The notes under the pieces: generated by a model | What the model saw: only the letters and a program-made list of their open reading frames with translations | What the model was told of the DNA's origin: nothing | Database searches by the model: none | Shown here: piece by piece, positions 4,724-15,889 of the stretch | Layout: each line of letters begins with the position of its first letter | Position numbering within the stretch: position 1 is the first letter of the stretch | Assembly: GCA_964510585.1 (NCBI GenBank) | Contig: CAZECW010000125.1 | Span: forward strand, 1-19,125 | Length of the DNA stretch: 19,125 nt | Source: an uncultured archaeon | Lineage (GTDB): Archaea > Asgardarchaeota > Jordiarchaeia > Jordiarchaeales > Jordiarchaeaceae | Direction: 5' to 3' | Program-made: the position numbers and the translations under genes

Positions 4724-6328
4724 TCAAGGTGTTTTGTTCCCACTTTTAGGAGATGGTTTATAGGCGTCTGCGAAAAGTTGGTAAAAGTCGTACAGGTTGA
4801 ATCCGACTGCCTCTCCCTTTTTCTCTTTTTGTTCTAGGACTCTCTTGAATTGTAGCATGCAGAATGGGCAGTTTGTTACTAGTCCGTTTACTCCGAATGC
4901 TTGGGCTATTTCTATTCTTCTGGCGGCTAGTCGGTCTGCGAGTTCAGGAAAGGCTGATCTCACTCCGCCCCCTCCACCACAGCACCAGCCGGACTTGGGA
5001 ACTCTCACCAGCTCTACGCCTGGAATTTTTTGAATCAAATTCAAGTATATTTCTTCTTCTAGCCCGCTGGCCATTATGTGGCAGGGGTAATGGTACATGA
5101 GTCTTACTTTTATGGGTTTGAGGTCTTCTGTGTTCAACTTTATTTTTCGCTCCATGTATTCTCCGACATCGTATATTTCGAAGTTGATGGGGATTCCATA
5201 CTCTTTGGCGAGTTTTGGGTAATCTTTTCTGAAGGTGGAGTTGCATCCGGAGCAGCTTGTTAGCACTTTTTTAACGCCCCTCTCTGCATACTCGTTGAAT
5301 ATGGTGAAGTTCTTTGTGACGAAGGGTTTCATACTGTCCCTCTGACCGGTTCTCATAAACGGGGAACCGCAGCAGGTTTGGCCTTTGGGTAGATGAACAG
5401 CTACACGATTATTTTGGAATATGTCTATTATTGCCTTTGCTACTGGTTGCTGTCTACGATTTATTATGCAGCCAGTAAAGAGTACGATTTCGTCCTGGGG
5501 TTCCCCCTCAAAATTTTTGATGTACTCTGGAAACAAGTCTATGGCGGGGGTGTCAATCACGGGTACGGAACCTCCGGTCTCCAGTACAGATTGAACTATT
5601 GCTCTGTGCTGGGGGAGGGGGCCAACACCTTCAACCACACTTCGGTACCGGAGGTACTCAACGACGCTTCTCCTTATGTCTATTTTTCGGGGGCAGGCAA
5701 CCTCACACTCCTGGTCTACTGGACATTTGAAAAGGCCTTGATCCACAGCTTCTCTTAGTCTTCCCTCGCTGGCATCTAGAGGGTCGCATATGAATCTGCA
5801 TATTTCAACTAGTGCTGCTGGTCCCAGAAATGTACGGTCTACATCTATGACGTTGCAGTCTGAGTAGCAGGCGGCACAGAGTATGCACTGTTTATTTTCT
5901 ATCATCTGCTCCAAGTCTTGGGGCGGAATTTTGGGTATGCCTCTAAATTCTCCCACCGTGAGGTCGGTGATTCGCCAGGGTCGCACTGCCCTTATACTCT
6001 GGAAGAAGGGGTCCAAGTTTACCACAAGGTCCCTTATAACTTCTAGATGGTCGAGGGGTTCAACTAGCAATGAACCATCTACAAGTACGTCCTTCACGAA
6101 TGTTTTGCAGGCTAATCCTGCCCTCTTGTTTATCCTCACAGCGCAGGAACCACATTGACCCATTCTGCAGGATGAGCGGAATGTTAAGGATTCATCTATG
6201 TTCTCTTTGATGTATAGGAGGGCTTCCAGAACTGTGGTGTCCTCTGTCACATTCAAATCAAAGTTTTGATAGCGGGGTTCAGTGTCAGTTTCGGGATTAA
6301 ATCTATAAACTGTTAGCTTGACCTTCAC
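4724..6328 (-). CDS. tfrB: TfrB-like protein: SdhB/FrdB Fe-S domain fused to two HdrB/HdrD-type CCG domains (534 aa)
   Basis: 2Fe-2S motif CRMGQCGSC…C; CILCAACYSDC; CPVDQECEVACP; CCG domains FTGC…TCCGSP…SCSGC and YHYPCH…WCCGGGGG…NCPFC. GTG start with GAGGTGA RBS overlapping the upstream TGA (6338-6340). Confidence 0.85.
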   Translation of the reverse strand: MKVKLTVYRFNPETDTEPRYQNFDLNVTEDTTVLEALLYIKENIDESLTFRSSCRMGQCGSCAVRINKRAGLACKTFVKDVLVDGSLLVEPLDHLEVIRDLVVNLDPFFQSIRAVRPWRITDLTVGEFRGIPKIPPQDLEQMIENKQCILCAACYSDCNVIDVDRTFLGPAALVEICRFICDPLDASEGRLREAVDQGLFKCPVDQECEVACPRKIDIRRSVVEYLRYRSVVEGVGPLPQHRAIVQSVLETGGSVPVIDTPAIDLFPEYIKNFEGEPQDEIVLFTGCIINRRQQPVAKAIIDIFQNNRVAVHLPKGQTCCGSPFMRTGQRDSMKPFVTKNFTIFNEYAERGVKKVLTSCSGCNSTFRKDYPKLAKEYGIPINFEIYDVGEYMERKIKLNTEDLKPIKVRLMYHYPCHIMASGLEEEIYLNLIQKIPGVELVRVPKSGWCCGGGGGVRSAFPELADRLAARRIEIAQAFGVNGLVTNCPFCMLQFKRVLEQKEKKGEAVGFNLYDFYQLFADAYKPSPKSGNKTP

Positions 6329-6337
6329 AAAATCACC

Positions 6338-8050
6338 TCAATAAGTCCTCTTTTCCGGTTTAAACATGGTGATTGTCACATTCTCGTAGGTTAATATGGG
6401 CATTTCGGGATGGTAGTGTAATATTATGTGTTTTGTCCAGTTTTCATAGTCCCGGTTGGGATAATCGGTTCTATAGTGTGCTCCTCGGGTTTCCCGCCTC
6501 GTCAGCGCAGCTAGTGTGGTGGCTTCCGCTAAATCCAGCATGTTTCCTAGCTCTAGGGCTTGGATAAACGCATTGTTGTAAATGGTGCTCTTATCTTCAA
6601 CGTATATTTTTGTGTATTTTTCTTTGAGTTCCCGAATTTTCTTTAGAGCTTCTGTTAATCCTTGTTCGTTGCGGAATAGTCCCACCTTCTCCCACATGGT
6701 TTGTCTCAGTTCGTCTCTCAGCTTTGGAACGCTGTACTCTCCTCTCTCACTGAAGAATTTGTATAATCGTTCCTCCTCCTTCTTTATCTTCTCTTTGGGA
6801 ACCGAGCGGAGACCCTCATTTCTAATGTATTCACAGGCTCTTTGTCCCGCCCTTTTTCCGAAAACCACACACTCAGTGAGAGCATTGGCTCCTTCCCTAT
6901 TCGCCCCATGAACACTCACACAAGCCACCTCTCCAGCGGCAAAAAGGCCCTTTATGGAGGTCTCAGTCCAAGTGTTGGTTTTCACACCACCCATCCAGAA
7001 GTGTTGACCGGGCACCACAGGAATAACGTCTTCCTTTATATCCACTTTAGCAAAAACACTCGCTAACTCTGCGAATTCAGCCAGCCTCCTCCTGAAGAAG
7101 CTTAAGGGTATGTTGGTGACTTCAAGAAGCTTTTCCAGCTCCTCTATTTTTATGTGGGTTAAGTCCAGCCCAATGTATTTCCCCTCTATTCCTCGACCCT
7201 CATTTATCTCTGTTTGCATAGCCTGAGAAACAACGTCTCTAGGTGCCAATTCCATAAAGTTTGGGGCATACCTCCTCATAAAACGCTCCCCTTCACTATT
7301 AATTAGTGTGCCGCCAATCACCCGGGCAGTTTCAGATATTAGTGTTCCCCGAGGGTAAAGAGTTGTAGGATGAAACTGCACAAACTCCGGATCTTTAAGT
7401 GGAGCACCAGCCCTATAGGCCATCGCGGTTCCGTCTCCGGTACACACACTTGAATTGGTGGTTCTGGCATAAACCCAACCGAATCCCCCGGTGGCCAGAA
7501 TTACAGCCTTAGACCTTATGGTGTGGAATTCTCCATTTTTTATCTCAATCGCAGTTATTCCTCTACACAAGTTGTCCTCCACGAGGAGAGAGGTGACGAA
7601 CCACTCATCGTAAAAGGTGACTCCTCTCCTCCAGAGCTGCTCCTGCAAAGCCATCACAAGTTCCCTTGCCCACTGAGACGAAACAATTATTCCAGTTTTT
7701 GTGCTCATACCTCCGGGGCTCGCCCTGAGCAACTCTCCATCTCGACCCCTTGAGTATACTACTCCCCAAGACTCAAGCAAAGGTATCTCGACTTCCGCCC
7801 CATCCGCCAAAACCTCCACGGCATCCTGATCCGCCATGTAGTCACTACCCTTAATTGTTTCCTGTAAATACATTTCCTTGGGCTCATTGGGAGCCGGCGG
7901 GAAATGTAATGCACCGGTGGCTACACAGGTGTGAGACCTTAAGGGATGAACCTTGGAAACAACCGCAACATCTGCATACTCACTGGCCTCCAGAGCAGCC
8001 CGGAGTCCAGCTAGGCCACCACCCACAATCACAATATCGTGAACAATCAT
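6338..8050 (-). CDS. sdhA: Succinate dehydrogenase/fumarate reductase flavoprotein subunit (covalent-FAD His motif present)
   Basis: Motifs GGGLAG, RSHT, QFHPT, LISETAR, ELAPRD, HFWMGG, HGANR, RRETRGAHYRTD. Start moved from TTG 8065 to ATG 8050 because AGGGAG lies just upstream of it. Translationally coupled to tfrB. Confidence 0.9.
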   Translation of the reverse strand: MIVHDIVIVGGGLAGLRAALEASEYADVAVVSKVHPLRSHTCVATGALHFPPAPNEPKEMYLQETIKGSDYMADQDAVEVLADGAEVEIPLLESWGVVYSRGRDGELLRASPGGMSTKTGIIVSSQWARELVMALQEQLWRRGVTFYDEWFVTSLLVEDNLCRGITAIEIKNGEFHTIRSKAVILATGGFGWVYARTTNSSVCTGDGTAMAYRAGAPLKDPEFVQFHPTTLYPRGTLISETARVIGGTLINSEGERFMRRYAPNFMELAPRDVVSQAMQTEINEGRGIEGKYIGLDLTHIKIEELEKLLEVTNIPLSFFRRRLAEFAELASVFAKVDIKEDVIPVVPGQHFWMGGVKTNTWTETSIKGLFAAGEVACVSVHGANREGANALTECVVFGKRAGQRACEYIRNEGLRSVPKEKIKKEEERLYKFFSERGEYSVPKLRDELRQTMWEKVGLFRNEQGLTEALKKIRELKEKYTKIYVEDKSTIYNNAFIQALELGNMLDLAEATTLAALTRRETRGAHYRTDYPNRDYENWTKHIILHYHPEMPILTYENVTITMFKPEKRTY

Positions 8051-8182
8051 AAAATTCTCCCTCAACTATTCGCATTACTAATGTAAAGTTTTCTCTTTTA
8101 CGGACCTCGTTTTATGGACATTGTTATTTTTTGTATTATTTTTCGAGGGTAGATTAAGTTTATGATTTTTGTGGTGGCAAGA

Positions 8183-8213: not shown

Positions 8214-8480
8214 GTGGTATTTTTGCCCTCTGTGAAGGTGAGTTTAAGTTTGCCTGAAGAACTCTTAAAAATAGTAGATAAAGCTGCAGACGAGAATAAG
8301 ATGAGTAGAAGTGAGTTCGTTACCCGAATTCTGGAAAAGGCATTGAAGCCAGAAGAAGAGGTTCACAGGTACCCAACGGTTCTCTGGAAGCTACAGAAAT
8401 CGGGATACCTGAAACTTAGAAGCCCCAGATATCCTAGTAGAAGAATTGGGAGATGGATAGTGGAGGATGCAGAGGAGTGA
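8214..8480 (+). CDS. Ribbon-helix-helix (CopG/MetJ/Arc) DNA-binding protein, antitoxin-like (88 aa)
   Basis: VKVSLSLPEELLKIVDKAADENKMSRSEFVTRILEKAL is a clear RHH pattern. TTG 8223 is an alternative start. Confidence 0.88.
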   Translation: MVFLPSVKVSLSLPEELLKIVDKAADENKMSRSEFVTRILEKALKPEEEVHRYPTVLWKLQKSGYLKLRSPRYPSRRIGRWIVEDAEE

Positions 8481-8908
8481 GAGTCTCATACAGTTTTTCT
8501 GAGGGAGGATACACAGCTCAGGGAGATATAATACCGGATGTGCCAATCGTCAACTTGGCTCTTAAGGTGGGAAGATGCAGAGCCAGAGGCCCGGCAATAA
8601 TTGACACTGGGTTTGACGGAGGCGTTTACCCAAATATGGAAATTACGAGACTCTTTAAAGACGCTGAACCTCTCCTAGTAGTAGAATTTGAAAATCCGCT
8701 CTATGGAAGAACGGAGTTTGAGGTATTCACCGCTCAAGCCTTCCTAAATTATGGGAGAGACTACTTTAGTATAGGTGAGGTGAAAGTCTACGTACCAACC
8801 GAACCCGAACACATAACTGGAGAGGTATTAGTTGGCAGGGAAATACTCAACCAGTTCAAAGCCCTACTACTGGAACCCCAAACAAAAACCTTAACCATAG
8901 ACCTATAG
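8477..8908 (+). CDS. Clan AA (retropepsin-like) aspartic protease (about 143 aa)
   Basis: AIIDTGFDG catalytic DTG motif and C-terminal VLVGREILNQF (hhGRxhL). Start moved to GTG 8477, which forms a GTGA overlap with the RHH stop and has GGAGG/GAGGA upstream. Confidence 0.85.
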   Translation: MRVSYSFSEGGYTAQGDIIPDVPIVNLALKVGRCRARGPAIIDTGFDGGVYPNMEITRLFKDAEPLLVVEFENPLYGRTEFEVFTAQAFLNYGRDYFSIGEVKVYVPTEPEHITGEVLVGREILNQFKALLLEPQTKTLTIDL

Positions 8909-9092: not shown

Positions 9093-9374
9093 TTAATCTA
9101 TTTTTGGTGTGAATTTGAGTACCAGCCAGTGGCGTCTTGAGATTCTCAGAGCAACTTTGTTTTTGCCGTGTATCACCTGTTTGGCGTATGGCTTTATTTC
9201 TTCAAGTATTGAGGCGTCGCTTCCAGAAAATTCCACTTTTAGGGGGAGGTGTGAAACTTTGAAGATATTTCCTCCGAGCTGGTAGTATTCAGCCCAGGGC
9301 CCCACAAGTTTGAATCCCCTATCTTCGAGAATTTTCAGGACCTCTTGTGGAATCACGTCTGATAATTTTAACAT
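9093..9374 (-). CDS. Small hypothetical protein (93 aa) coupled to the nucleotidyltransferase
   Basis: ATG at 9374 overlaps the upstream stop by 7 nt. Composition is protein-like and the ORF fills the space. Confidence 0.72.
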   Translation of the reverse strand: MLKLSDVIPQEVLKILEDRGFKLVGPWAEYYQLGGNIFKVSHLPLKVEFSGSDASILEEIKPYAKQVIHGKNKVALRISRRHWLVLKFTPKID

Positions 9375-9895
9375 TGTTTAGCCCCCAACCGCCTGGATAA
9401 TTTATTAAATTCTTTAAGTAGCCCTGCTTCTCTAACTCTTTTACATAGGAGACCGTAATCTATTTTCTCAGCTTTCACTAGTACATCTTTTAAATCTTCG
9501 TAGTCCCTTCGACCAAAGGCCATAAGCTTTGTTACTATTAAATCCTCTATGGATGGTAGGTAAAGATTGCCACGAATTTTTTTTGAGTGCTTTTTGAAAT
9601 CAGCATCGTATATCATTAAAGGCACATTTACATCGATTCTATTGCTGCTTGAAGTTTTTATAGAGAGCCCCCAGCTTCGCCACTGAACGTTAAATCCTCT
9701 CTTTCTCAGCTCCTCTGTTATTTTTCCTCTTAGCTCCTCAACATTACCAACTGACACCATAACATCAATATCCTTCGTTGTGCGGTGTAGAAGACCGTGA
9801 AGAATTAGTGCCCTCGCCCCAATCAAGTAGACGTCATAATTATATTTCTCAAAAACTTTCAACAATTCCTCAAAATCCACAGGAAACTCAAACAT
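9368..9895 (-). CDS. DNA polymerase beta-superfamily nucleotidyltransferase (DUF6036/AbiEii-like, 175 aa)
   Basis: YLIGARALILHG…RTTKDID (G…R-T-x-D-x-D) and C-terminal SIEDLIVTKL…GRRDYED. GGGTGG RBS. Confidence 0.82.
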   Translation of the reverse strand: MFEFPVDFEELLKVFEKYNYDVYLIGARALILHGLLHRTTKDIDVMVSVGNVEELRGKITEELRKRGFNVQWRSWGLSIKTSSSNRIDVNVPLMIYDADFKKHSKKIRGNLYLPSIEDLIVTKLMAFGRRDYEDLKDVLVKAEKIDYGLLCKRVREAGLLKEFNKLSRRLGAKQC

Positions 9896-10114: not shown

Positions 10115-11014
10115 TTAGAAATTTTCGAATTCGAAATGGGAGAAGATGTTTTTTATTTTTTCTTTTTCGTCCTTGTTTAGCCATTCTGAGCGGTGGTATT
10201 CTGGTTTTACTCCGATTTTTTCTGGTTTAGATAGCCATAGTGGGTTGTAGGGTAATAGGCCGATTTTTTTGATATTTAGAGATTTTAGGTATTGGGCTAG
10301 TTTGGTTAGATTTTCTTCTGTGGCGGTGATGTTGGGGATTAGTGGGATTCGTGGTAGGACTTCTAGTTTCTGGTGTTTTATTAAATCCTCGAAGTTGCTG
10401 AAGATTTTTTCATTTTTTGCTCTACAGTACTTCAAGTGTAAGTCAGGGTCGAATATTTTTAAATCAAAATAGATGAGGTCTACGTAGGGTAATATTAATT
10501 CGTTGAATTTTTCGCGGTTATAGTATCCGCTGGTTTCTATGCAGACGTGGATATTTTCCTTTTTGAGTTCCTTTAATAGTTGGTTTACATATTCCATGTG
10601 GTAGAGGGGCTCGCCGCCGGATAGGGTGACTCCGCCACCAGAGTTCTTATAAAAAATTTTGTCTTTTAATATGATGTCAACGAGTTCTCTTATTTCGTAT
10701 TCTTTGCCCACAAATTTTAGTGCCTCATTTGGGCATACCTTTATGCATTCGCCGCAGAGATTACATAGACTGCGATCTATGCGGTAGGGGTATGAGAAGT
10801 CTATGGCCTTCATTTTGCAGGCTTCTATGCATCTTCCGCATTCTCCACAGTTTTCCCTGTAGAAGGCTATTTCCTGATTTGGATTTTTGGTCTCGGGATT
10901 TTGGCACCAGACACAGGATAGGGGACACCCTTTAAAGAAAATTAGGGTGCGTATCCCAGGGCCGTCATCCAATGCGTTTCTCTTAATGTCCACTATTAAT
11001 GTTCTTTTCGTCAT
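10115..11014 (-). CDS. Glycyl-radical enzyme activating enzyme (radical SAM) with 2x[4Fe-4S] ferredoxin insert (299 aa)
   Basis: DGPGIRTLIFFKGCPLSCVWCQNPE; inserted CGECGRCIEAC and CNLCGECIKVCP; GGGVTLSGGEP; ETSG; DLK; PRIPLIP; LLPYN. Confidence 0.95.
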   Translation of the reverse strand: MTKRTLIVDIKRNALDDGPGIRTLIFFKGCPLSCVWCQNPETKNPNQEIAFYRENCGECGRCIEACKMKAIDFSYPYRIDRSLCNLCGECIKVCPNEALKFVGKEYEIRELVDIILKDKIFYKNSGGGVTLSGGEPLYHMEYVNQLLKELKKENIHVCIETSGYYNREKFNELILPYVDLIYFDLKIFDPDLHLKYCRAKNEKIFSNFEDLIKHQKLEVLPRIPLIPNITATEENLTKLAQYLKSLNIKKIGLLPYNPLWLSKPEKIGVKPEYHRSEWLNKDEKEKIKNIFSHFEFENF

Positions 11015-11060: not shown

Positions 11061-14030
11061 TTATCTTGAGCAGAACTCTGTCCTCTCAATTATTTCCTGC
11101 TGCATGTTCTTGTTCAATTTTACAAAGTAGGCATTGTATCCAGATACCCGAACCAGCAGCCAGCGGTAATCGTCGGGATTTTTCATAGCGTCCCTAAGTG
11201 TGTCTGAAGTTATTACGTTAAATTGCCACTGCATCCCACCTAGGTCAAAGAAGCTCTGAACATAGCTGGTGAACAAGTCAAGTGTTTTCTTGTGTGAATC
11301 TCCCGGATGTGGCACAAGCTTCACATTGAAGGAGGCATTGTTGGGCATTTTCAGATAGTTCATGCTTGCTATTGAGCGGATGTTTTGGAGTAACTGGTCT
11401 GAGGGACCTGGGGCGGGGGTGAGTCCAGGGGTGAAGGCTTTCCCCTTCTTTCTTCCTGAGGGTAGGGCTCCGGAGAGCATGCCGAAACCTACATGGTAGC
11501 TTATGGACCAGTATCCTACGAGGTAGTTTCCTCCGCGATAGTTTTTGGCTGGGTTGTATATGTCGAAGCAGTAATCTATTAGGTCTTGGGCTACCTCATT
11601 GGTTCCTGGCTCATCTGAGCCGAACTTGGGAACCTTCTGGATTTTGCGTAGTACCTCCTCGGTTCCATTCTCGAAATTGTTTTCCAGGGCGTTCATTAGG
11701 GTTGGCCAATCTAGAACCTTCTTTTTATAGATTAAGTCCCTTATGACAAGTAGGCTGTCCACAACGTCAGTCAATGAAACCAAAGCCACTCCAGAAGTGT
11801 TGTAAATGGCTCCACCATTAACTACATCGGTTCCCTTCTCCAAGCAGCCCTCAAACATTGACGAGAGAAGCGGGGTTGGATGTATGTACTGGTGTGCATA
11901 TCCTAGGTAATTGTTAATTTCAATCGATTTTTCTGCTAGGTATCTTAACTGTGTTTTGTAGGCGTTGAGGAAATCCTCAAATGTGTCGAATGAGTTTCTA
12001 ACATCCCCAGTTTCTGGACCTATTTTTTCGCCCATCACTGGATGTACTCCATTGTTGAGAGCCATTTCCAGGGGGGCAACAAGGTTTAGAAGCATGCAGT
12101 TTGTGTGGCCGAAGTGTTTTCCAACTATTGTGGGCTCAACGCAGCCGGTGGCAGCCCAATCCCTTGCATCTTCGATGGGGATTCCCTGGTAGACTAGGGC
12201 TTCAATCATTGCCTTATCGTTGTGGATGGAGGGGGAGGCAACCATGTTAATGTTTACTTCGCATAGTCGTCTCAAATATTCCTTAGAATTTACTCCAGTA
12301 TAGTATCGGGCGTTCATGTTTGGGTCTTGGAAGCATAGCATTTCCGCCACTTTGAGAATAATGTAGGTCATATCGTTTACAGCATTTTTTCCCTCCCTGT
12401 CTACTCCTCCCACGGTTACAGTGTCGTCTGAGGAACTGCCACCAAAAAGTTTGTTTCCAACACTGGGCACCAGTGGGTCGTGGTCGTTAATCCTGAGGAA
12501 GAAGTGTCCCACCAGCTCTATGGTTCTTTTTACTATTTCTTCCCTCTCTTTGTCGGTTTTTGCTTGTGACATTTCTTTCTCAAAGTAGGGTTGAAGCATT
12601 TGGTCCAGCCTTCCAATGGACATGGCGGAATTAGCGTTTTCAGCATGGATGCAGGTCCATGTTATCCAGAGGGAAGTTAGTGCTTCATGTATGGTTTCTG
12701 CGGGTTTTGCTGGTACCTTGGCGCAGATTCTTGATATTTCTTTTAGTTCCTCTATTCTTTTGGCTTGTTGGGGGTCGTTTGGGTTTAGGGTTTCCGCTAT
12801 TCTTAGAGCTTCCTTACTTAGGTTTTTGGCGTGGTTTAGGACTCCATCGATTACTATTTGGACTGCCTTGTAGAAGTTCTTTTTCTCTGGAGATTTTGCC
12901 TGTTTCTCCTTTAAAGCCGCTTCCTCCCTGATTTTTTCAAATCCCATGGTTAGTACCTTGGGGAGCCCTGGAACAGTGTGGGATATGGCATTGTTCTTCA
13001 TCATAAAGTATAGTACGAATCTCTCCTCTAATTGTTGGGAGATGGGGTTTCCATACTTTTGTCTGCAGTATTCGCGGACGTTTCTATCCATCCAGTATGG
13101 GAAAACTTCGAAGTTTAGAATATCTGCATCTTGGGGGGAAATGTCATTGGGGTTGAGTTCCCTCTTATATATTGTCCTCAACTCTGGCCAGATAGCGGTT
13201 CCTATCAGTTCGGGATAGATGGGTATGCCCACCTCTTTAGTGGTTGTGGAGCCGGGAATGAGGTATTGGTCGTGGATTATGGGTTTGCGGTTTGTCAATA
13301 TGTGGTATAGTGCTTTTGCCTGGCGGAGTTCTGGGTCGATTGGTTTTCCATTCTTGTCCGTTTCGAAACCGTTCTCTCTGTGGTATTCTGTTAGAAGCTT
13401 GGCTCTCTCCACACAAATTGCGGGTTTGAGGGCGTAGCGGCGGTTCTTCAAGTATTTTAGGCGTGGAAAATCATCAATGGAATATTTTCCCAGGTAGGGG
13501 TCTTCAAGAAACTTTACGTTGTCCACCTTTCGACCCAGGATTTCGTTTTGGAGGCGTTTCCTCTTCTCCTTATCGATGTCCCCTATAGGGTAGAGTAACC
13601 TGTTTCCGGGGCCCTTGTAGCCCTTTATCTTGGCTCCCTTAATAACAGTGGTCATGTAGGAGAACTTGGTGAGGTAAGCCATGTTCCCAACATAATTCAT
13701 CTCATTGGTTAACAAGTAGTTGAGGGATTCCTCAGGACTCTTGTTCCAGATTTTAGCCATGGTTTCTTTATCTTTATAGTAAATGGTAATGTTTGGGTTC
13801 TCGATTACCCCGTCACTTACCTTCATTTTTCCGTCCTTAAAAACCACATATATGTTGACTTTGCCGTCACGGGTTTTGAACTGGTACTTCGCGTTGAAAA
13901 TGAATCCTGTTTCCTTATTGTAAATCTCCTTACGAAGTTTTGGACTTATTCTAAACAGTAACCCCATCAGTCTCAACGAAAGCTTAAACATTCCAATCGA
14001 AAGGTTACTTTTAAACTCTTTAAGACTCAT
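11061..14030 (-). CDS. Glycyl radical enzyme (PFL2/dehydratase-like superfamily) with N-terminal SCP2-like extension (about 989 aa)
   Basis: Gly loop RVSGY (Gly codon 11141-11139), single-Cys loop GCVEP (Cys codon 12143-12141), GRLDQ, SHTVPG, LPSGR. Start moved from TTG 14048 to ATG 14030 because of the AGGTGG RBS. Confidence 0.93.
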   Translation of the reverse strand: MSLKEFKSNLSIGMFKLSLRLMGLLFRISPKLRKEIYNKETGFIFNAKYQFKTRDGKVNIYVVFKDGKMKVSDGVIENPNITIYYKDKETMAKIWNKSPEESLNYLLTNEMNYVGNMAYLTKFSYMTTVIKGAKIKGYKGPGNRLLYPIGDIDKEKRKRLQNEILGRKVDNVKFLEDPYLGKYSIDDFPRLKYLKNRRYALKPAICVERAKLLTEYHRENGFETDKNGKPIDPELRQAKALYHILTNRKPIIHDQYLIPGSTTTKEVGIPIYPELIGTAIWPELRTIYKRELNPNDISPQDADILNFEVFPYWMDRNVREYCRQKYGNPISQQLEERFVLYFMMKNNAISHTVPGLPKVLTMGFEKIREEAALKEKQAKSPEKKNFYKAVQIVIDGVLNHAKNLSKEALRIAETLNPNDPQQAKRIEELKEISRICAKVPAKPAETIHEALTSLWITWTCIHAENANSAMSIGRLDQMLQPYFEKEMSQAKTDKEREEIVKRTIELVGHFFLRINDHDPLVPSVGNKLFGGSSSDDTVTVGGVDREGKNAVNDMTYIILKVAEMLCFQDPNMNARYYTGVNSKEYLRRLCEVNINMVASPSIHNDKAMIEALVYQGIPIEDARDWAATGCVEPTIVGKHFGHTNCMLLNLVAPLEMALNNGVHPVMGEKIGPETGDVRNSFDTFEDFLNAYKTQLRYLAEKSIEINNYLGYAHQYIHPTPLLSSMFEGCLEKGTDVVNGGAIYNTSGVALVSLTDVVDSLLVIRDLIYKKKVLDWPTLMNALENNFENGTEEVLRKIQKVPKFGSDEPGTNEVAQDLIDYCFDIYNPAKNYRGGNYLVGYWSISYHVGFGMLSGALPSGRKKGKAFTPGLTPAPGPSDQLLQNIRSIASMNYLKMPNNASFNVKLVPHPGDSHKKTLDLFTSYVQSFFDLGGMQWQFNVITSDTLRDAMKNPDDYRWLLVRVSGYNAYFVKLNKNMQQEIIERTEFCSR

Positions 14031-14287: not shown

Positions 14288-15106
14288 TTGAATGTACTCG
14301 CAATTTTTGCCCATCCTGATGATCTCTCATTCTTCTGCTCAGGAACACTAGCCAAATGGGCGGAGCAGGGACACAAAATTTACGCTTTATGCGTCACAAG
14401 CGGCAATGTGGGAACACTAAGAACAGACCTTAAAAAGGAAGATGTGGCTGAAATGCGGGAAAAGGAGCTCAGAGCCGCCAACGAAATACTTGGAGTGAAG
14501 GAAACCCTAATTTTGGGTTATCCAGATGGGGGATTCATAAACGCTCCAGAACTACGGGAAAAACTAATCTATTACGTTAGAAAATACAAGGCAGACCGTG
14601 TAGTAACCTTTGACCCCTGGGTAGCCTACGAGGTGCACCCCGACCACGTGGTTGTGGGAAGAATGGCCGCGGAAGCAGCGGCCTTCGCAGCCTTCCCCCT
14701 TTTATACCCCGAACAAATTAGGAGTGGAGTTGAACCCTACGCCTGTTCCGAGGTGTGGTTTATGGGGCTACTGGGCCATCCCCCAAACTGCTTTGTGGAT
14801 ATCTCTCAAACCCTGGAAAAAAAGGTGAAGGCCTCCTTAAAGTTTGAAGCCACACTCACACTCCTAGCCCGACTATTTGCTCCCAACATTGACCCCACCC
14901 GGGTAACTTCGGAGGACTTGAAGATCCTATCTCAACATGCAGACACACTCCTACGCTTTATGGCCTCCACCATAGGGGAGAAAGTAAAGTTAAAAGCGGC
15001 TGAAGCATTCTTTGTCCAAAGAACTCTACCGGGACATTTTGATAACTTTCAACAAATAATGCTGGAGATGCTGGGAAACCCGCCTGAACCACCCAAAATC
15101 TGCTAA
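14288..15106 (+). CDS. PIG-L/LmbE-family Zn-dependent de-N-acetylase (272 aa; probable true start ACG 14273)
   Basis: AHPDD, TSG..G, R..E…A…LG, PDG, HPDH, VDIS…KK..A, AEAF motifs. Confidence 0.92.
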   Translation: MNVLAIFAHPDDLSFFCSGTLAKWAEQGHKIYALCVTSGNVGTLRTDLKKEDVAEMREKELRAANEILGVKETLILGYPDGGFINAPELREKLIYYVRKYKADRVVTFDPWVAYEVHPDHVVVGRMAAEAAAFAAFPLLYPEQIRSGVEPYACSEVWFMGLLGHPPNCFVDISQTLEKKVKASLKFEATLTLLARLFAPNIDPTRVTSEDLKILSQHADTLLRFMASTIGEKVKLKAAEAFFVQRTLPGHFDNFQQIMLEMLGNPPEPPKIC

Positions 15107-15297: not shown

Positions 15298-15696
15298 CTA
15301 GTAGAGTTCAACTTGAAACTCTTCGATATTTTTGTAGCTCTCATCCTTGGTGACGAGCTTTGCATTGTTTTCTATGGCGACAGCTGCAATTAAAACGTCT
15401 ATGAGATTCATCTGTCTGCCTTTTTCTTTTAGCTCAAATTCAATGTTTGCCGCTATTCTTGCGGAGGAAGCTGTGAAGGGTAAAACAGTTAGTCTCTCAA
15501 GAAACCTTACAGCATCACTATATTCCTTCACTCTCCCCGCTATTTTTGGGCCCCTCAAGATTTCCCAAGCCACAATTGAAGTGGTTAAAAGAGGATACTC
15601 TCTAATTTCTTTATATTTCTGTATTGAGTGCTCCTTTCCTCTCAAAAAGTCTACCAAGAAGGTTGTTTCAAGGCAGTATCTTTGCGTTTTTATCAA
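15298..15696 (-). CDS. vapC: VapC PIN-domain toxin
   Basis: YCLETTFLVDFLRG, SIVAWEILRG, IDVLIAA, LVTKD. Likely start TTG 15696 with GAGGGGAG upstream; it overlaps the antitoxin 3' end. Confidence 0.88.
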   Translation of the reverse strand: MIKTQRYCLETTFLVDFLRGKEHSIQKYKEIREYPLLTTSIVAWEILRGPKIAGRVKEYSDAVRFLERLTVLPFTASSARIAANIEFELKEKGRQMNLIDVLIAAVAIENNAKLVTKDESYKNIEEFQVELY

Positions 15697-15889
15697 ACTC
15701 TTTTCTCCCCTCAAGTATTACCTTCTCAATTTCTTCGGCGTCTTTCCAGGCTCCAGCAAACTCAATCAGGTTCTTTTTTTTCCCCTCAGTAAGTCTGATT
15801 ATGACATCGCTAAAGCTTTCACCTTCCAGTTTCTCCCTCTTTAACCGTTCATATGCTTCAAGGGTTATTGTCAAAGTCTTAGTTGGCAT
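15668..15889 (-). CDS. vapB: VapB antitoxin (DUF217-like, 73 aa)
   Basis: TKTLTIT.EAYERLKR.K..GESFSDVIIRL signature, directly upstream of the PIN gene. Confidence 0.88.
   Translation of the reverse strand: MPTKTLTITLEAYERLKREKLEGESFSDVIIRLTEGKKKNLIEFAGAWKDAEEIEKVILEGRKEFDKNAKILP

Follow-up and report, generated by a model that had tools for sequence, protein, structure and literature searches.

A glycyl radical enzyme joined to an SCP2-fold domain in Asgard archaea and anaerobic bacteria: a candidate eliminase for hydrophobic substrates

The window analysed here is a stretch of 19,125 nucleotides from an uncultured archaeon of the Jordarchaeia/Freyarchaeota (contig CAZECW010000125.1, assembly GCA_964510585.1), and its central feature is a gene for a glycyl radical enzyme (GRE) on the reverse strand (11061..14030). 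The open reading frame (ORF) is uninterrupted and encodes 989 amino acids (aa) followed by a stop codon; it starts with ATG, with AGGTGG upstream. Pfam places a PFL-like domain (PF02901, E = 2e-167) at residues 191–850 and a Gly_radical domain (PF01228, E = 1.5e-22) at residues 867–970. The full-length AF2 model has a predicted local distance difference test score (pLDDT) of 88.4 and a predicted template modelling (TM) score (pTM) of 0.91. The ORF, the Pfam matches, the AF2 models and the Foldseek searches confirm that the product is an intact GRE with an SCP2 domain fused to its N-terminus, as a sequence-only reading of the locus had claimed for a protein of about 989 aa. The next gene on the same strand, 46 nt downstream (10115..11014), encodes a radical S-adenosylmethionine (SAM) enzyme of 299 aa, which that reading had taken for the activase. 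It matches TIGR02494 with 293.9 bits against a cut-off of 174 and contains a Radical_SAM domain and two ferredoxin-type cluster motifs. These matches identify it as an activase of the type that places the radical on the conserved glycine. In the window's enzyme this glycine is Gly964 in the RVSGYNAY motif (11139..11141); it lies in the Pfam Gly_radical domain and is invariant in the alignment.

Residues 1–132 (13635..14030) are predicted to fold as an SCP2 domain, and the fold evidence is decisive. The AF2 model of the N-terminal region, built on 64 homologues, is confident over residues 1–132, with pLDDT above 90 over most of residues 11–130. It features a long N-terminal helix, a five-stranded sheet and a C-terminal helix with an invariant Gly115-Asn116 pair. 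A Foldseek comparison of this model with the PDB returned 38 chains at E ≤ 0.001; with few exceptions these are SCP2 domains, and the Swiss-Prot AlphaFold models gave the same identity. UbiJ (6h6p) matched with E = 1.5e-6 and a TM-score by target of 0.70, and the further PDB matches include AF1534, human and rabbit SCP2, the SCP2L domain of MFE-2 and the C-terminal domains of alkylsulfatases. For single-domain SCP2 entries among the top PDB matches, the TM-score by target was 0.56–0.74. The sequence-only reading had put the SCP2-like pattern at 13990–13640, which corresponds to residues 14–130, i.e., to the SCP2 domain, and the structure prediction that it proposed as a check bears it out. In the PF02036 search, the other proposed check, PF02036 is the best Pfam family for residues 1–190 (E 0.001–0.004, model positions 20–97 of 101), with scores of 18–19.8 bits that stay below the threshold of 21.3. 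The extra N-terminal region is present, and its length is about 185–190 residues rather than the estimated 170.

A search with residues 1–190 against 1.84 billion representative sequences yielded 196 relatives. Many of them are free-standing proteins of 130–180 aa. A separate search with the same residues, restricted to proteins of similar total length, gave 135 fused relatives, nearly all of 983–1003 aa, with N-terminal identities of 52–97%. The relative P0149 exceeds the PF02036 threshold with 21.6 bits, and 11 of 50 free-standing homologues match the family at E ≤ 0.01 (best E = 1e-5). The profile of the free-standing homologues finds SCP2 chains as its top PDB matches, with the GN[ML] motif aligned. 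Two proteins matched in several stretches, P0130 and P0212, proved to be an ankyrin-repeat protein and an immunoglobulin-like repeat protein and were discarded as false positives. Residues 1–190 contain no cysteine and so no cysteine motif for a [4Fe-4S] cluster or iron. The linker that follows (residues 133–185, 13476..13634), delimited by its pLDDT profile and conservation, ends in a conserved DPYL...DFPRL segment leading into the core. Its pLDDT of about 50–60 in the model of the domain alone rises mostly to 82–96 in the full-length model, with a dip to 65 at about residues 151–160.

The catalytic core (residues 186–989, 11064..13475) was delimited by Foldseek and by end-to-end alignment with PFL2, glycerol dehydratase (GD), propanediol dehydratase, HypD and CutC. 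Its closest solved relative by sequence is PFL2 of Archaeoglobus fulgidus (2F3O; E = 2e-126, 427 bits), followed by GD (380 bits), propanediol dehydratase, HpyG, HypD and CutC. No NCBIfam equivalog cut-off was reached; the scores stayed far below for HypD (427 of 1100), CutC (414 of 1050), HpsG (402 of 1000) and HpfG (359 of 1000), and the PFL2-3 subfamily scored 556 against a cut-off of 678. Clustering with a characterised small-molecule GRE, which would have told against the sequence-only reading, was not seen by this measure. The hydrocarbon-activating enzymes are more distant, with 214 bits (partial) to MasD (9O8U) and 194 bits to TutD (4PKC). In the Foldseek search with the full-length model the top 44 PDB chains belong to eliminases, isomerases and GREs that have not been characterised (TM-score by target 0.85–0.94, and 0.87–0.94 for the eliminases and isomerases), and the X-succinate synthases rank below all of them.

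The core is classed as eliminase-type because it keeps both the Cys-X-Glu motif and the GD histidine, and by its sequence it is placed outside every named characterised eliminase family. The motif, Cys630-Val-Glu632, lies in the Cys loop (TGCVEP, 12135..12143); Cys630 and Glu632 align with Cys433 and Glu435 of GD, and Cys630 also with the cysteine of PFL2. His351 (12978..12980) aligns with His164 of GD (1R8W). In fused clade 1, the clade of the window's enzyme in the tree described below, the catalytic cysteine is kept in all 50 sequences; the AISHTV motif around His351 is conserved and its Ser-His pair is likewise invariant (50/50), and the histidine is also kept in the split clade. GRE eliminases and isomerases have Cys-X-Glu in common, and in GD Glu435 deprotonates the C1 hydroxyl while His164 protonates the leaving hydroxyl (PMC13450708). 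The alignment also reveals that His281 and Ser282 of GD are replaced by Ser and Ala and Asp447 by Asn in the window's enzyme. We take these three GD positions to be the residues that hold the small diol.

GD of Clostridium butyricum (1R8W) and propanediol dehydratase (5I2A/5I2G) share the fold of the core (TM-score by target 0.91–0.93, about 30% core identity), the Cys-X-Glu motif, the His164 equivalent, the glycyl radical motif and a dedicated activase, and an aldehyde would be the product in both cases. Unlike the window's enzyme, they lack an SCP2 module, and the small-diol residues differ. PFL2 (AF1449, 'PflD') is archaeal and has the CXE motif, as the window's enzyme does, but it is only 776 aa long, with neither the N-terminal module nor the WPEL and WMDRN segments discussed below; its function is still unassigned (PMC13450708). 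MasD/AssA belong to the same superfamily and occur in the same kinds of sediment organisms, but differ in the Cys loop (Cys-Met-Ser versus Cys-Val-Glu), in genomic context and in their much lower similarity. A distant fused relative of 985 aa, P0162, keeps the SCP2 module, has GGAMQP in place of TGCVEP and has lost the arginine of RVSGY; it is probably an inactive paralogue.

The fused form was found in 64 genomes in a scan of one genome per species, the majority of them Asgard archaea: Promethearchaeota (Lokiarchaeota), Hodarchaeota, Thorarchaeota, Odinarchaeota, Hermodarchaeota and Jordarchaeia. The bacterial holders are Desulfobacterales, Desulfosudaceae, three Desulfatibacillum and two metagenome-assembled genomes labelled Bacteriovoracaceae. 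Relatives in anaerobic bacteria, which the sequence-only reading had raised as a possibility, do exist and are even outnumbered by those in Asgard archaea. In archaea and bacteria alike the core is 67–78% identical to that of the window's protein, with little or no variation in the active-site motifs. In the genus of the source organism three of five other genomes carry the gene, and none of 35 more distant relatives sampled alongside them does. The source genome (3.8 Mb) has a high load of GREs and of tungsten-type aldehyde:ferredoxin oxidoreductases (AOR), with five GRE genes, one of them with the SCP2 module, and ten AOR-family genes. Desulfatibacillum aliphaticivorans has ten GRE paralogues, of which two are SCP2-fused, one is a true MasD orthologue and seven are others. 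One of its two fused enzymes belongs to clade 1 and the other, with a core identity of 49%, to a second fused clade (L072:901-3903).

A FastTree phylogeny was computed from the core columns, with the MasD orthologue as root and GRE paralogues of D. aliphaticivorans as the only outgroups. It unites the split with the fused GREs (support 100) and places the split clade as the sister group of the fused ones (97). The bacterial sequences are basal in fused clade 1, and the Asgard sequences together make up a single nested group (98), in which that of the window branches earliest. This topology suggests a single transfer of the fused form into Asgard archaea from Desulfobacterota-like bacteria, a placement that depends on the root and on few outgroups.

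The split form of the system is exemplified by P0146, a free-standing SCP2-like homologue of 147 aa encoded between an 820-aa GRE and its activase. A scan with an 11-sequence alignment collected 80 metagenome loci with a free-standing homologue. Of these, 67 extend 300 nt or more upstream of the homologue, and in 61 of them the gene immediately before it on the same strand encodes a GRE; 54 extend 1 kb or more downstream, and in 52 of them the gene immediately after it encodes an activase. The GREs of these split systems are 40–48% identical to the window's core; other paralogues reach 26–32%. As judged from this gene order, the SCP2-like module is a dedicated GRE partner, present either as a fusion or as a separate small gene. 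The split trio of GRE, SCP2-like protein and activase is nearly always accompanied by a family-less protein of 616 aa (32 loci) and a DUF6765 protein (27 loci); the split-system loci concerned include L091, L094, L096, L098-L102 and L113-L116. Searches of the protein atlas and the PDB gave no lead for either companion, and DUF6765 was found to be unrelated to a weak phospholipase-C-like neighbour and to any solved structure.

The GRE and the SCP2-like protein of locus L091 were folded together, each supplied as an alignment, alongside controls. The pair reached an interface score (ipSAE) of 0.89, and the best control reached 0.01. Among solved complexes 58 of 80 reach that mark, as do 2 of 110 mismatched pairs, counts that calibrate only roughly where custom alignments are used. 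Contact agreement between runs was at least 85%, and partner pLDDT was at least 72. The result does not come from the model's memory, since no similar complex has been solved. Binding within the split pair is supported by these scores, not shown, as they are a model's confidence and not a measurement.

Mapped onto the window's protein, the predicted interface comprises residues 278–286 and 306–338 on the core side, helices just ahead of the His351 loop, and residues 34–35, 45 and 106–132 on the module side, including the invariant Gly115-Asn116. The split and fused clades have most of the interface residues in common, and nearly all are unchanged in the window's protein. The putative docking surface (residues 278–338, 13017..13199) contains the WPEL and FPYWMDRN segments. 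The least confident segment of the full-length model is the loop 344–347 directly before His351. In benzylsuccinate synthase (BSS) a loop after the first barrel strand helps form the substrate channel (PMC13450708), and by this analogy we infer that the docking site may adjoin the substrate channel of the window's enzyme.

The gene neighbourhood was studied in 52 non-redundant fused loci within six genes of the GRE, with ORFs of at least 90 aa clustered. The activase is present in 32 of the 52 and is the next gene in 29. The commonest partner after it is AOR (23 loci), followed by enoyl-CoA hydratase (12), a FadE-like acyl-CoA dehydrogenase of 602 aa (5) and an acyl-CoA ligase (4), for which the NCBIfam models matched best are without exception those of long-chain-fatty-acid ligases, with scores under the cut-offs. 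AOR stands near the fused GRE in at least four gene orders, in both archaea and bacteria. In the Desulfobacterales locus L058 the order is GRE, ligase, hydratase, AOR, dehydrogenase and SCP2-GRE. The partners of GD and propanediol dehydratase are different, being a microcompartment or 1,3-propanediol dehydrogenase. An aldehyde product is expected because AOR adjoins an eliminase-type GRE, and a fatty-acid-type route because the ligase, hydratase and dehydrogenase are the set that a fatty acid needs.

Two less frequent sets of neighbours are hints at the substrate and nothing more. A metallophosphoesterase or a haloacid dehalogenase (HAD) phosphatase lies beside the GRE in about 9 of the 52 loci. 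A CrtI/carotenoid-isomerase-like flavoprotein together with an FNR-like FAD/NAD/2Fe-2S reductase is found in 14 Asgard loci, divergent from the GRE (e.g., L012:8190-9821 and L032:5597-6847), with a second copy after AOR in L025 and L031. The pair presumably resembles limonene-dehydrogenase-type systems for isoprenoids. A hydrophobic protein of 207–209 aa without a Pfam or NCBIfam family lies beside the GRE or AOR in three Desulfobacterales/Desulfosudaceae loci (L058:13039-13668, L010 and L044).

On these grounds we consider it rather probable that the enzyme is a GRE 1,2-eliminase (dehydratase or lyase) whose SCP2 module serves a hydrophobic hydroxylated substrate, converted to an aldehyde that enters beta-oxidation. 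The thiyl radical of Cys630 would take a hydrogen atom from the hydroxyl-bearing carbon of the substrate, Glu632 would deprotonate that hydroxyl, and His351, as the proposed proton donor, would aid the departure of the group on the neighbouring carbon, leaving an aldehyde. The SCP2 module, docked on helices 278–338 beside the loop that carries His351 as in the predicted complex, would bind the water-insoluble tail of the substrate or pass it on, the role that SCP2 domains have in alkylsulfatases, MFE-2 and UbiJ. The tungsten AOR would then oxidise the aldehyde, and the acid would be activated to an acyl-CoA and pass into beta-oxidation. The SCP2 domains of the alkylsulfatases SdsA1, Pisa1 and YjcS, of peroxisomal MFE-2 (SCP2L) and of UbiJ from the ubiquinone metabolon have the same fold as the window's module and act with enzymes for water-insoluble substrates. 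They are 11–21% identical to it, and none is joined to a radical enzyme; the window's domain differs in its N-terminal position and in having a free-standing counterpart, whose gene lies between those of the enzyme and the activase. A hydrophobic substrate is not proven, and independent support for it comes from the conserved AOR, hydratase, FadE-like dehydrogenase and acyl-CoA ligase genes.

Several observations weigh against such a substrate. The Pfam SCP2 score of the window's protein is under the gathering threshold. The most conserved residues on the SCP2 side are part of the predicted interface, and docking without any binding of a cargo could explain why they are conserved. The conserved neighbours of the split clade differ from those of the fused clade, and neither the 616-aa protein nor DUF6765 is obviously lipid-related. 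No AOR or beta-oxidation gene lies beside the GRE–activase pair of the window itself, the ten AOR genes of this genome being elsewhere. The neighbourhood counts include related genomes and are not independent observations.

The first three of these points also fit an alternative in which the SCP2-fold module carries no lipid and is a structural or regulatory subunit that stabilises the core or gates the radical domain or the channel, the substrate being small and polar. The small subunits of other GREs do serve solubility and gating, and BSS-beta and MASS-beta sit over the substrate channel (PMC13450708). Those subunits, i.e., the beta and gamma subunits of BSS, the beta, gamma and delta subunits of (1-methylalkyl)succinate synthase (MASS) and the gamma subunit of 4-hydroxyphenylacetate decarboxylase (HPAD), are likewise accessory proteins, of hydrophobic-substrate GREs, but they are of the high-potential iron-sulfur protein (HiPIP)-like [4Fe-4S] or rubredoxin-like type (PMC13450708), whereas the window's module has the SCP2 fold and is free of cysteine. 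In the solved enzymes with an attached SCP2 domain (alkylsulfatases with bound decane-sulfonate or dodecanol, MFE-2 and UbiJ) the partner handles hydrophobic molecules, and the fused clade is accompanied by a long-chain-like acyl-CoA ligase, hydratase, dehydrogenase and AOR. A module without lipid cargo is therefore judged unlikely.

A more specific proposal, which we regard as distinctly unlikely, is that the family is an O2-independent lyase for the glycerol backbone of membrane lipids. A phosphoesterase would free the head-group hydroxyl, and the GRE would abstract hydrogen from that carbinol carbon and expel the neighbouring alkoxy, acyloxy or hydroxyl group. The resulting 3-(alkyl/acyl)oxy-propanal would be passed to AOR, converted to a CoA ester and processed by the dehydrogenase and hydratase. 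The phosphoesterase genes beside the GRE are one hint in this direction, and another is that YbiW and PflD cleave an ether C–O bond next to a hydroxylated carbon (PMC13450708). A third is that, in the abstracts surveyed, cleavage of alkylglycerol ethers is reported for a single enzyme, which requires oxygen. If true, the proposal would mean the first anaerobic cleavage of ether lipids, including archaeal ones, in Asgard archaea and Desulfatibacillum.

The same chemistry of YbiW and PflD raises the question of whether the window's enzyme is a GRE isomerase or a ring- or ether-opening enzyme that turns a hydrophobic substrate into its ketone isomer with no leaving group released. The CXE motif is common to the isomerases YbiW, PflD and HplG, which cleave C–O next to a hydroxylated carbon (PMC13450708), and YbiW and PflD are almost as similar to the core in sequence and fold as the eliminases are. 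A ketone, however, would not need AOR, and the GD-type histidine is kept. Isomerisation is accordingly rated as very unlikely.

An alkyl- or benzylsuccinate synthase adding hydrocarbons to fumarate, as proposed for A. fulgidus PflD and for Asgard GREs (Hermodarchaeota and Thorarchaeota) from 29–33% identity to AssA/BssA and a single cysteine (PMC8163825), would fit the presence of the family in the alkane and alkene degraders D. aliphaticivorans and D. alkenivorans and a fumarate-reductase-like pair 3 kb from the GRE in the window, but is highly improbable given the Cys-Met-Ser loop of the D. aliphaticivorans MasD orthologue (L078; 1485 bits to 9O8U) against Cys-Val-Glu here, the low scores to MasD and TutD compared with PFL2 and GD, the structural ranking, a conserved partner that is an aldehyde oxidoreductase and not part of a succinate-derivative pathway, and fumarate-reductase-like genes that are not conserved beside the GRE. 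Judged by its sequence, the window's enzyme is not an alkylsuccinate synthase, and the published label for the Asgard enzymes, which fits neither the Cys loop nor the genomic context, needs revision.

The June 2026 review of GREs by the Drennan laboratory names small subunits for no more than three of these enzymes, all of the iron-sulfur or rubredoxin type. It makes no mention of SCP2, sterols or fused domains, and lipids appear only in two reference titles (PMC13450708). This agrees with the earlier claim that the characterised GREs have no SCP2 domain. Characterised GRE eliminases take small polar molecules, and the hydrocarbon GREs use iron-sulfur small subunits (PMC13450708). A literature search found no paper describing a GRE paired with SCP2 or a sterol carrier, and nothing relevant on GREs with ether lipids, fatty aldehydes or AOR. 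An SCP2 module on a GRE, fused or as a subunit, would be a new kind of accessory component, and the system would be the first sign of GRE radical chemistry aimed at lipid-like alcohols. The SCP2-GRE family is widespread in anoxic sediments and among the commoner GREs of Asgard archaea. As two cultured bacteria, D. aliphaticivorans and D. alkenivorans, carry the gene, the proposal is testable now.

Among the other genes of the window, a PIG-L de-N-acetylase gene (14288-15106), divergent from the GRE, was considered as a pathway member and rejected: it recurs only in near-identical Jordarchaeia loci and in no other lineage. A thiol:fumarate reductase (TfrAB)-like pair, consisting of a flavoprotein and an iron-sulfur subunit that carries two CCG domains, lies near the GRE, as does a second flavoprotein of the fumarate-reductase type (window 4724-8065 and 640-2313). 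A link to fumarate was rejected as well, the pair and the second flavoprotein not being kept beside the GRE in other lineages. On both sides of the GRE–activase pair lie toxin–antitoxin-like units, three in all (8214-8908, 9093-9895 and 15298-15714): a ribbon-helix-helix (RHH) protein and a 151-aa partner, a DUF6036 nucleotidyltransferase together with a protein of 93 aa, and a PIN-domain protein. It is genes of this kind that follow the pair. The toxin–antitoxin-like units of the window occupy the place that AOR has in related loci.

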